Assembly: GCA_000830295.1 (NCBI GenBank)
Contig: CP010425.1
Span: forward strand, 256,001-320,000
Source of the DNA: an archaeon GW2011_AR15
GTDB lineage: Archaea > Nanobdellota > Nanobdellia > Woesearchaeales > GW2011-AR15
Direction of reading: 5' to 3'
DNA: 64,000 nt
Shown: piece by piece, positions 16,226 through 17,929 of the stretch
How the letters are laid out: every line of letters starts with the position of its first letter
How positions within the stretch are numbered: position 1 is the first letter of the stretch
Notes under the pieces: generated by a model
What the model was told of the DNA's origin: nothing
Seen by the model: the letters and a program-made list of their open reading frames with translations, nothing else
Database searches by the model: none
Made by a program: the position numbers and the translations under genes

Positions 16226-16765
16226 ATGAATGAGAATGTCAGGAAGGAGATAATAGATGTCCTGAAGGGATCAATAAAGATTGTAAAGCAGGACCAGTTA
16301 TTCAGGTTAAGGGAGCTGAGCGACCGCATTATCGAGACTGCTGCTGTCTACCAGGACAGGGAGTCAATAGGCGTTGCGGTGCTGATATATTCTTTGTCAA
16401 AAATATACAGGAGCAAAGATGATGTCGATAATTTTGTGCTCCCGCATCTTGCAGATGCCCTGAAAGCCCTGGAAAAGGATAATCTTGTAAGGTATGAAGC
16501 AGAGATAGACCATATAATAAAAGATATGTCTGAGAAAGACAGCAAGACCAAATTCTATGTTCAGGAAGTTCTCCAGAGGGCTGAAATAAAAAAGGGCTCA
16601 AAAATGTTTGAGCAGGGAATTTCAATGGGTCAGGCTGCGGAAGCCCTTAATGTCTCTATCTGGGACCTTATGGATTATGTCGGCAAGACAAGGATAATTG
16701 ATGAATTCGGCCACAAAACTAATGTAAAGAGCAAGATTGAATTTACAAGGAGGCTTTTCAAATGA
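16226..16765 (+). CDS. Hypothetical protein with C-terminal UPF0175-like HTH
   Basis: GISMGQAAEALNVSIWDLMDY resembles the UPF0175 antitoxin HTH; upstream of a PIN gene. Confidence 0.75.
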   Translation: MNENVRKEIIDVLKGSIKIVKQDQLFRLRELSDRIIETAAVYQDRESIGVAVLIYSLSKIYRSKDDVDNFVLPHLADALKALEKDNLVRYEAEIDHIIKDMSEKDSKTKFYVQEVLQRAEIKKGSKMFEQGISMGQAAEALNVSIWDLMDYVGKTRIIDEFGHKTNVKSKIEFTRRLFK

Positions 16766-16776
16766 AGGCATTAGTC

Positions 16777-16881
16777 TTTGACACTTTGACGAAGGAAAAG
16801 TCCGAAAATCAGGAGGAGTATCTATGATACGAGGAGTGATTTTTGACACTTTGACGAAGGAAAAGTCCAAAAATCAGGAGG
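16777..16881 (+). repeat. Two 40-bp direct repeats (period 65 bp) carrying a hairpin and AGGAGG RBS, interleaved with alternative PIN-gene starts
   Basis: TTTGACACTTTGACGAAGGAAAAGTCC(G/A)AAAATCAGGAGG at 16777-16816 and 16842-16881, one mismatch. Confidence 0.95.
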
Positions 16882-16888
16882 GCATATC

Positions 16889-17581
16889 ATGGTAAAAGCC
16901 CTTGTTTTCGATACCGGCCCTCTTATCTCCCTTGCACTGAACAATCTTCTCTGGGTGCTTAAGCCCCTGAAAGAGAAGTTTGGCGGAGAATTCTATATTA
17001 CCCCCTCTGTGAAAAAGGAGGTTGTAGAGAAGCCGCTGACAACAAAGAGATACAAGTTTGAGGCCCTCCAGGTCTTAAGCCTTGTGGAGACAGGAGTGCT
17101 GAAAGTCTATGATTCCCCTGATCTCAGGAAAGAAGCCCTTTCGCTGCTGGATTCAGCCAACAGCCTATTCATGGCAGACGGGAATTATGTAAAAAATGTG
17201 CAGTACGCTGAGATAGAATCCGTCATGGCTGCAAAGCTTCTTCATGCTGATGCCGTGGTGGTAGATGAATTCATAACAAGGGCGCTTCTGGAAAATCCTG
17301 AAGCTGTTGAGCAAAGAATGGAAAAAAGGTTTCACAGGAACATAGATGCTGACAAAAAAAATATAGACGCGTTTTCCAGGCGGGTGTCAGGTATAAATGT
17401 TATAAGGTCATTTGAGCTGATTGCTGTAGCCTACGAGAAAGGATTATTCAGAGAGTATTACCTGAAGCTTGACAACCCGAAAGAAACCCTGCTTGACGGG
17501 CTGCTGTGGGGGCTAAAGCTCAACGGCTGCTCTGTAACTGAGCAGGAAATAGCTGAAATCAAGAAATTAGAGGGCTTTTAG
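16889..17581 (+). CDS. PIN-domain protein (DUF3368/VapC-like)
   Basis: VFDTGPLI, ITPSV.KE, AEIES, VVDE acidic PIN motifs. Confidence 0.85.
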   Translation: MVKALVFDTGPLISLALNNLLWVLKPLKEKFGGEFYITPSVKKEVVEKPLTTKRYKFEALQVLSLVETGVLKVYDSPDLRKEALSLLDSANSLFMADGNYVKNVQYAEIESVMAAKLLHADAVVVDEFITRALLENPEAVEQRMEKRFHRNIDADKKNIDAFSRRVSGINVIRSFELIAVAYEKGLFREYYLKLDNPKETLLDGLLWGLKLNGCSVTEQEIAEIKKLEGF

Positions 17582-17695: not shown

Positions 17696-17929
17696 ATGGC
17701 AGAAAAAGTTGCTAAAGCAGGAGTTAGGAAAGAGAAAGGATATCTGTATTTCGTAGATAAGCACGGAGATATCTCAAGAGCCAAAATGTCAAGAGGCGGA
17801 AGAAAAAAGGGCGGCTCAGGAACACAGAAAGTCGCTAAAGTAGGCGTCAAGAAAGCAAGTGGCTATCTATATTTTGTAGACAAGCACGGAGACGTTTCAA
17901 GAGCCAAGATGGCAAGGGGAAGGAGATAA
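17696..17929 (+). CDS. Small basic protein with internal tandem duplication
   Basis: KVAK.GV.K..GYLYFVDKHGD.SRAKM.RG twice; GGAGGT RBS; oligo-T tract downstream. Confidence 0.9.
   Translation: MAEKVAKAGVRKEKGYLYFVDKHGDISRAKMSRGGRKKGGSGTQKVAKVGVKKASGYLYFVDKHGDVSRAKMARGRR

Follow-up and report, generated by a model that had tools for sequence, protein, structure and literature searches.

Termination-reinitiation coupling where a stop codon overlaps a start codon (ATGA, TGATG) is a known way of linking the translation of neighbouring genes in archaea and bacteria. Downstream starts are also controlled by leader open reading frames (ORFs) and by hairpins that sequester the Shine-Dalgarno (SD) sequence, as in the erm and cat leaders and in the coat-replicase coupling of phage MS2. 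In VapBC-type and UPF0175-PIN toxin-antitoxin (TA) operons, a small gene of the helix-turn-helix (HTH) type is followed by a translationally coupled PIN-fold gene. In this work, we describe a gene junction that resembles each of these systems in the archaeon GW2011_AR15. It lies in a stretch of 64,000 nucleotides (nt) of contig CP010425.1, referred to below as the window, and all coordinates are those of this whole stretch; the host genome (G000) is a single 1.158-Mb contig that is 96.8% complete. At the junction, two mini-ORFs, each opening like the start of a gene, stand between a gene for a protein of 179 amino acids (aa) and a gene for a 230-aa protein with a PIN-like fold. We interpret them, with a probability of roughly 0.6, as a locus-specific pair of leader mini-cistrons (relay upstream ORFs) that would have arisen by local duplication and template switching and would be kept for termination-reinitiation coupling of the UPF0175-like and PIN-fold genes.

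The junction shares with classical overlap coupling the ATGA at the stops of the 179-aa gene and of the first mini-ORF and a 7-nt ATGGTAA after the second, and its relatives mostly have a 4-nt overlap; it differs in that coupling would here run through a chain of two non-conserved mini-cistrons. No mini-cistron relay was met in the literature found on template switching, archaeal coupling and PIN or TA systems, in which no search was aimed at relays. As in leader-peptide and SD-hairpin control, a short ORF runs through the 5' arm of the hairpin that holds the next SD sequence, and its translation should open that hairpin. Unlike the known leaders, those found here have no known sensing function, start with the N-terminal codons of the regulated gene itself, and are stacked in tandem. 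The order of an HTH-type gene and a coupled PIN-fold gene recalls the TA operons, whereas the pair described here is conserved throughout an order of archaea, exceeds classical TA partners in the length of both proteins, and reaches a Pfam cut-off with neither. The component parts, namely overlap coupling, leader ORFs with SD hairpins and template-switch hairpins, are of known kinds. What is unusual is that the leaders copy the start of the regulated gene, that they recur and are stacked at one junction, that the layout is direct-inverted-direct, and that one patch comes from an unrelated gene.

Layout of the junction

All features are on the plus strand. The upstream 179-aa ORF (16226..16765 in the ORF list) carries within its 3' end an SD-like AGGAGG at 16748..16753, read from the sequence, which lies 8 nt ahead of the ATG at 16762, and its stop codon (TGA, 16763-16765) overlaps this ATG as ATGA. 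Mini-ORF 1 (16762..16827, 21 aa, MKALVFDTLTKEKSENQEEYL) begins with MKALVFDT, the consensus N-terminus of the 230-aa family, and its TGA overlaps the next ATG at 16824, again as ATGA. Mini-ORF 2 (16824..16895, 23 aa, MIRGVIFDTLTKEKSKNQEGISW) begins with MIRGVIFDT, and its TAA overlaps the functional ATG at 16889 as ATGGTAA. The main ORF of 230 aa (16889..17581) encodes the PIN-like fold in its N-terminal part and a helical part at its C-terminus. Right after the FDT codons, both mini-ORFs enter a 40-nt repeat, present at 16777..16816 and 16842..16881, that ends in AGGAGG (16811-16816 and 16876-16881), in each case 7 nt ahead of the next ATG. The two copies are identical at 39/40 positions, with G16804 / A16869 as the sole mismatch, and two matches were obtained in 0/100 shuffles. 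A unit therefore consists of a gene-start copy (ATG and about 7 codons ending in hydrophobic-Phe-Asp), a spacer ending in AGGAGG, and a stop overlapping the next ATG.

These elements had been proposed earlier from the letters alone, and that sequence-only reading was accurate in its description: the three starts (16762, 16824, 16889), the twofold repeat ending in AGGAGG, and the mini-ORFs of 21 and 23 aa that each stop on the next start were all recovered. So was the recoding of the first and third starts (copies 1 and 3), which both spell KALVFDT while only 13/21 bases and 0/7 third positions are identical, and the pairing of 16837-16845 with 16868-16876, which is exact over 9 nt and present in the predicted fold. 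The 25 nt between the repeat copies resemble neither the corresponding stretch before nor the one after.

As the genome was derived from metagenomic data as one contig and misassembly can affect short tandem repeats, strain variants or repeats might have been misjoined into a tandem; the same reading had named a chimeric assembly as a concern. In all four runs examined (4/4, from four studies), Logan contigs cover the region with 0 differences, and in two runs the full 701 nt lie within a contig. Of the four runs, two may represent the source sample; the runs X10 and X13, which are not flagged as a possible source, have low-depth contigs across the tandem (X10, 16537-16941, 405 nt; X13, 16776-16963, 188 nt). 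Nine runs contain 99-100% of the sampled words, and one-unit forms of the junction are present in the assemblies of relatives. The arrangement is not the product of one assembly, since contigs of several runs agree, and an assembly artefact is extremely improbable. The contigs of the four runs contained no unit-number variants within the population, a result of little weight as contigs drop rare variants.

Modest hairpin evidence, from predicted folds, is available within the window. A hairpin at 16800..16847 (-13.7 kcal/mol, z -2.44, 2/200 shuffles as good), also found in the fold of the 191-nt region, would place the ATG at 16824 at its tip and the SD sequence in an internal loop, its outer arms being repeat copy 1 and the first codons of mini-ORF 2, which are derived from a gene for a HAD-type hydrolase as described below. 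An alternative hairpin at 16837..16876 would pair the HAD-derived codons with repeat copy 2 in a 9-bp outer stem (69-nt unit, z -2.27, 4/200; 47 nt, z -1.72, 11/200). A third one at 16876..16924 (-16.7 kcal/mol, z -2.02, 7/200) would cover the functional start, with the SD end of copy 2 paired to codons ~10-12 of the 230-aa gene and the ATG inside. Stronger ATG-in-loop hairpins with the SD sequence in the 5' arm are predicted in two related loci, L006 (-21.7 kcal/mol, z -3.9) and L009 (-19.8 kcal/mol, z -3.3), with 0/200 shuffles as good in each.

Every joint in the chain is an overlap (ATGA, ATGA, ATGGTAA), and each downstream start has an AGGAGG at the usual spacing. Ribosomes finishing the upstream gene would reinitiate on mini-ORF 1, then on mini-ORF 2 and then on the PIN-fold gene, and in passing they would open the SD-sequestering hairpins. 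Synthesis of the PIN-fold protein would thereby stay strictly dependent on, and probably lower than, that of its partner. According to the excerpted text of a study of H. volcanii and E. coli, intergenic distances of ~20 nt nearly abolish termination-reinitiation coupling (PMC10666635). A 127-nt insert would accordingly uncouple the two genes unless it is bridged.

Translational bypassing, known from phage T4 gene 60 and from mitochondrial 'byp' elements, would give the same layout another meaning: ribosomes would initiate at ATG 16762, with take-off at the Asp/Thr codons of copy 1 and landing on those of copy 3, yielding the consensus N-terminus MKALVFDTGP. Copy 1 stands at the ancestral start position with the exact consensus peptide and synonymous changes only, and hairpins and SD-like strings lie within the gap, as such a mechanism would have it. 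The hallmarks of bypassing are matching take-off and landing codons and a stop right after take-off. At this junction the codons differ (GAC ACT vs GAT ACC), and the frame, instead of meeting an immediate stop, remains open to the ATGA overlap 13 codons on; each downstream start has its own AGGAGG at normal spacing, and the gap measures 127 nt vs ~50 nt in known cases. We regard bypassing as very improbable.

The two genes and their junction in related genomes

The 230-aa protein had been labelled PIN by the sequence-only reading. The fold behind this label is supported by modelling, while no Pfam or NCBIfam profile matched at default thresholds: the comparison with PIN_6 gave E=0.12 and 13.3 bits, below the cut-off of 27, and a PDB sequence-profile search returned nothing relevant. 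The AlphaFold2 (AF2) model has a mean predicted confidence (pLDDT) of 92.5, and in a Foldseek search of the PDB 14/15 top matches were PIN/VapC or archaeal PIN-like chains (E 1e-3 to 9e-3, prob 1.0, TM-score on target 0.56-0.69). By its model, the protein has a PIN fold with a Rossmann-like alpha/beta/alpha core and stands outside all curated PIN families. In an alignment of 17 sequences of the family, E44, D126 and E127 never vary, and D8 hardly does. The 179-aa protein bears, over residues 114-155, a faint resemblance to the antitoxin-type HTH family UPF0175 (PF03683; E=0.034, 14.3 bits, below the cut-off of 27.9), so its C-terminal region may be UPF0175-like; its Atlas neighbours are unnamed archaeal (Nanobdellota) clusters.

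The 230-aa gene was matched in 35/41 related genomes and in 357 stretches of GTDB species genomes, and by sequence matching it is conserved across Woesearchaeales-type genomes. In the loci of relatives that were examined, the 179-aa gene lies directly upstream of it. In one congener, G005, a distant second paralogue (36% identity) of the 230-aa gene is present, and several HAD paralogues stand in a tandem run.

Variation in the number of units at this junction had been set beforehand as a check, and relatives with 0, 1 or 2 units were indeed found. The junction was compared in the best 80 of the 357 GTDB stretches. A 4-nt ATGA overlap is present in 48/80 of these loci, and most others have a gap of <20 nt; by sequence comparison, the 4-nt overlap is the ancestral state. 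A gap of >=20 nt occurs in 11/80 loci, four of which (L057, L059, L060 and L063, the same genomes as L006/G001, L009/G009, L010/G002 and L011/G003, respectively) carry one ~60-nt unit. In each of these single units the N-terminal codons of the gene are copied at the opening of the mini-ORF, which stops on the real ATG. Relay mini-ORFs in a decayed state are found in L040/L041 (two metagenome contigs with one sequence; 52 nt) and in L030/G020 from another family (49 nt), and L062 has a 53-nt gap without a relay. In total, a chain in which an ATG lies at the upstream stop and the stop overlaps the next ATG is kept in 8/9 units or gaps of ~50-60 nt (both window units, L057, L059, L060, L063, L030 and L040/L041, and not L062), and wherever it is kept it leads to the functional start. 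A plain overlap is found in L039, the closest relative (68% and 75% identity) and sister to the window with support 1.0.

The junction seems prone to insertions. In three further loci, L023 (G022), L084 and L113, the 179-aa and 230-aa genes are separated by an additional small gene, which encodes a similar peptide of ~65-75 aa (...QMQIKNVS.QEAIGLLEMAKDQI...), and L032 (G036) has at the same place an extra gene for an unrelated protein of ~115 aa.

Origin of the units

In the four family genomes with a single unit, the functional gene's first ~20 nt recur in the spacer as an imperfect inverted copy, within the stretch that runs up to the ATG. For L006, L009 (18/22) and L010 (16/19), 0/2000 shuffles were as good, and for L011 p=0.0085; when the 38-nt stretch ahead of the start was tested in the same way in 60 zero-unit loci as a control, 0 reached p<0.01 and 2 reached p<0.05. 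A segment that is the reverse complement of nearby sequence, as expected from template switching, is therefore present in the relatives L006, L009, L010 and L011. The spacer of L006 is in addition identical to the last 36 nt of the upstream gene at 18/36 positions, ungapped and in register (p=0.0004). In the window, the reverse complement is significant for the HAD-derived arm only (9/9 nt, p=0.01).

As the spacer is an inverted copy of the local start and, in G001, stands in register with the tail of the upstream gene, construction of the unit from local sequence, and not by insertion from outside, is mostly shown at the level of sequence comparison. The first step was probably a tandem duplication of ~62 nt (2 mod 3) across the stop/start overlap. 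Such a duplication would suffice to generate a mini-ORF in which the duplicated tail is read in the frame of the upstream gene, up to that gene's overlapping stop. In a second step, template switching would have reshaped the tail thus freed, leaving an inverted copy of the start with the SD sequence in the stem and the ATG in the loop. Tandem duplication alone was considered and rejected, as it leaves the 39/40-identical 40-mers beside 25 nt that share almost nothing unexplained.

Template switching creates reverse-complement repeats and hairpins, according to the excerpted text of two reports (PMC8794818; PMC5453318). The likeness to short template-switch or quasipalindrome mutagenesis (Ripley model; four-point model) is that a reverse-complement copy of adjacent sequence makes a hairpin in one step and is followed by compensatory-looking changes. 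The units described here differ in that the inverted copy stands between two direct copies and that one patch was templated 413 kb away.

Two families of spacers can be told apart, one of the window and L009 (p=0.0005), the other of L006, L010 and L011 (p<=0.004), between which similarity is not significant; the units may have had one old origin, or two. The first unit of the window (unit A, 16762-16823) is identical to the L009 unit at 45/63 positions, as compared with 201/306 in the gene body, and since these identities are similar the shared unit fits vertical descent with losses. Precise loss of a unit by recombination between two start copies is plausible, and the plain overlap of L039 is compatible with it. 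In L006 (G001:C92), the functional start agrees with that of the mini-ORF at all of 25 nt, and the two flank a 37-nt spacer that is old, being homologous to those of G002 and G003. This suggests, on sequence grounds, that the two start copies were homogenised by gene conversion or by template switching through the hairpin. The start of L039 agrees with copy 3 of the window at 19/21 bases (codons 3-9) and 5/7 third positions, vs 14/21 and 1/7 for copy 1; being nearer to the L039 start, copy 3 is taken as the orthologous start and copy 1, at the ancestral position, as the diverged one. The peptide of copy 1 was possibly kept by selection on a leader peptide, by spells as the functional start between unit losses and gains, or by recombination with another lineage.

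The second unit would be recent, because the 40-nt cores are 39/40 identical, and its start would be a patch templated from the first 20 nt of an unrelated HAD gene with a short 'FD' codon string. In a blastn-short search of the 191-nt region against its own genome, the one non-self match was 20/20 (E 1.7e-4), between 16824..16843 and G000:C1:685817-685836, on the plus strand and outside the window. The matched site is the start of a gene for a 221-aa HAD hydrolase that begins MIRGVIFDMDGV (Pfam HAD_2, 1e-37), 413 kb away; the match begins at the A of both ATGs, in the same frame. Orthologues of the HAD gene in relatives begin MI[KR]G[IV]IFDMDGV, and the one in G004 has the ATA-CGA-GG string too. 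Because this N-terminus is native to the HAD orthologues, the HAD gene is taken as the donor of the middle start. The HAD start has a 9-nt string (the F-D codons) in common with the functional start, and it also shows complementarity to the spacer over 9 nt; each of these is a possible source of microhomology for the copying. The G-to-A change at 16869 in repeat copy 2 turns a G-U pair into an A-U pair and perfects the pairing with the HAD-derived arm. No other donor was found: copies 1 and 3 match nothing longer than 13-15 nt elsewhere in their own genome, and in G009, G001, G002 and G003 no ectopic copy (<=3 mismatches) was found of either the mini-ORF start or the functional start.

The sequence-only reading had inferred a site-specific mobile micro-element, comprising a hairpin and a ribosome-binding site, that was inserted twice after FDT codons and on each occasion supplied a new start taken from another allele of this gene. 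Of the latter claim it stands that at least one start is donor-derived, but the donor of the middle start is the HAD gene and not an allele. The former is not borne out. Unit numbers of 0, 1 and 2 among relatives and a patchy distribution on the tree, with homologous spacers in the non-sister window and G009, would fit a mobile element; so would copies 1 and 3, which differ synonymously only, as two functional alleles would, and the exact 25-nt duplication around the 37-nt spacer of G001, which resembles a target-site duplication. This exact flanking duplication is confined to G001, and the flanking copies in the window agree at 13/21 bases. Searches of the genome itself with the 40-mer (<=3 mismatches), a 31-mer and blastn-short found only the two tandem copies. 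In 20 family genomes, the 19-nt core (<=2 mismatches) was found at this locus only, in G000 and G009, with other matches at the level of reversed-pattern controls, and 400 further genomes of the order gave 9 one-mismatch matches vs 6 in the control. Dispersed copies at unrelated sites, which would mark an element resembling miniature inverted-repeat transposable elements (MITEs), are thus absent from the own genome, the 20 family genomes and, above control level, the 400 genomes of the order. In addition, the spacers are local sequence (the inverted start, and in G001 the tail of the upstream gene), the starts of G009, G001, G002 and G003 lack ectopic copies, and the agreement between unit and gene-body identity in the window and G009 fits vertical descent. 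A mobile origin appears distinctly improbable. The locus resembles MITEs, miniature insertion elements and mitochondrial 'byp' elements in having a hairpin-forming insert of ~40-65 nt in or at a coding region with varying copy number, and it differs from MITEs and 'byp' elements in having one locus per genome, no dispersed copies, no terminal inverted repeats, and content taken from the flanking genes.

An Rfam scan gave two sub-threshold matches only (caiA, 22 bits vs 55.5; snoR66, 20.4 vs 43). A scan for similar start pairs 24-200 nt apart, compared over the first 8 residues, returned DNA-level repeats only, and it was a weak one that missed copies 1 and 3, offset by one codon. A CRISPR-like mini-array was rejected by reasoning only, as relatives are single-unit and the 25-nt 'spacer' matches the HAD gene over 18 bases only; cas genes were not searched.

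Two other repeats were observed in this genome. Downstream in the window, a 77-aa ORF at 17696-17929 (+) consists of two copies of a ~35-aa Lys/Arg-rich motif (...GYLYFVDKHGD.SRAKM...) and has no Pfam match at E<=0.01. Many exact 19-27-nt matches with a constant offset of 3,967 nt between G000:C1 ~96,300-98,300 and 100,260-102,250 point to a diverged tandem duplication of ~2 kb or more, as judged from the matches.

Function of the proposed relay and significance of the locus

The same evidence on origin would equally fit a neutral mutational scar, that is, a complex product of duplication and template switching that has no regulatory role and is tolerated, only those variants surviving that keep the chain. 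Most lineages have no unit, 48/80 loci being plain overlaps; the HAD-derived start has no obvious adaptive sense, and older units decay (L040/L041, L030). Against a scar, the relay frame is kept in 8/9 units or gaps of ~50-60 nt, the decayed ones included, L006 and L009 have strong predicted ATG-in-loop hairpins (0/200 shuffles), the sole difference between the 40-mers (G to A at 16869) turns G-U into A-U with the HAD-derived arm, and copy 1 retains the family peptide consensus. A scar is a serious but somewhat unlikely explanation.

Several observations weigh against a locally built relay kept for coupling, our preferred reading. The spacer before the functional start of the window is not significantly an inverted copy of that start (p=0.57-0.60), neither L030 nor L040 has an inverted copy of its start, and the trace of the upstream tail in the spacer is significant in 1/6 units (L006) and not in the other five. 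At least two steps are needed, because the direct-inverted-direct layout requires a return point before the departure point, a class of event that, according to the excerpted text of the report, was not seen among human-chimp data (PMC5453318). Between copies 1 and 3 there are 8 base changes and 0 amino-acid changes, which is unexpected for a plain decaying duplicate. For the 7 nt at 16817-16823, ahead of ATG 16824, no template was found, and 5 of them are complementary to codons 2-3 of the HAD gene. Exact 20-mers are not rare, as 32 maximal repeats between distant sites of this genome measure exactly 20 nt and a repeated 20-mer is present in 2.7% of its 191-nt windows, so the case for the HAD gene rests on register (ATG to ATG, in frame, at a true gene start) and on the orthologues, and not on length. 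Unit A alone folds no better than shuffles (z +0.22), and the whole 191 nt give z -1.41. The unit-bearing lineages are not monophyletic on a tree with backbone supports of 0.1-0.8; with so weak a backbone, gains and losses of units are not countable. No RNA run is among the runs listed with words of the region.

A more speculative possibility, and a long shot on the sequence evidence, is that the start-mimic leader constitutes a distinct, evolvable translational gate for a PIN-fold nuclease in DPANN archaea. Template switching on a palindrome centred on the start would create its units, make them alike and exchange them, the newest one having been templated from the 5' end of a leaderless HAD mRNA. 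Upstream of the HAD gene (G000:C1:685767-685816, L135:451-500, outside the window), a TATA-like box TATAAAAA lies ~23-30 nt before the ATG, centred at ~26-27, and no SD-like string is present. By archaeal promoter geometry, this arrangement suggests a leaderless mRNA starting at or beside the ATG, where the copied 20 nt begin. If this were true, RNA-templated synthesis or repair of DNA in an archaeon would naturally leave such a footprint, a HAD copy whose first base is the A of the ATG. Either the gate function or the RNA-templated origin, if true, would make this a considerably more interesting locus.

Under the relay reading, the junction indicates how two coupled genes can withstand the insertion of sequence where the stop of one overlaps the start of the other: what was inserted becomes a chain of mini-cistrons. 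It offers a readable natural case of complex templated mutagenesis that would make starts, ribosome-binding sites and hairpins in one or few steps, and in the HAD patch the donor would be an unrelated gene that shares only a short hydrophobic-Phe-Asp codon string. DPANN archaea are not yet manipulable, and relatives with 0, 1 and 2 units provide a comparative handle on the translational control of a conserved PIN-fold nuclease.

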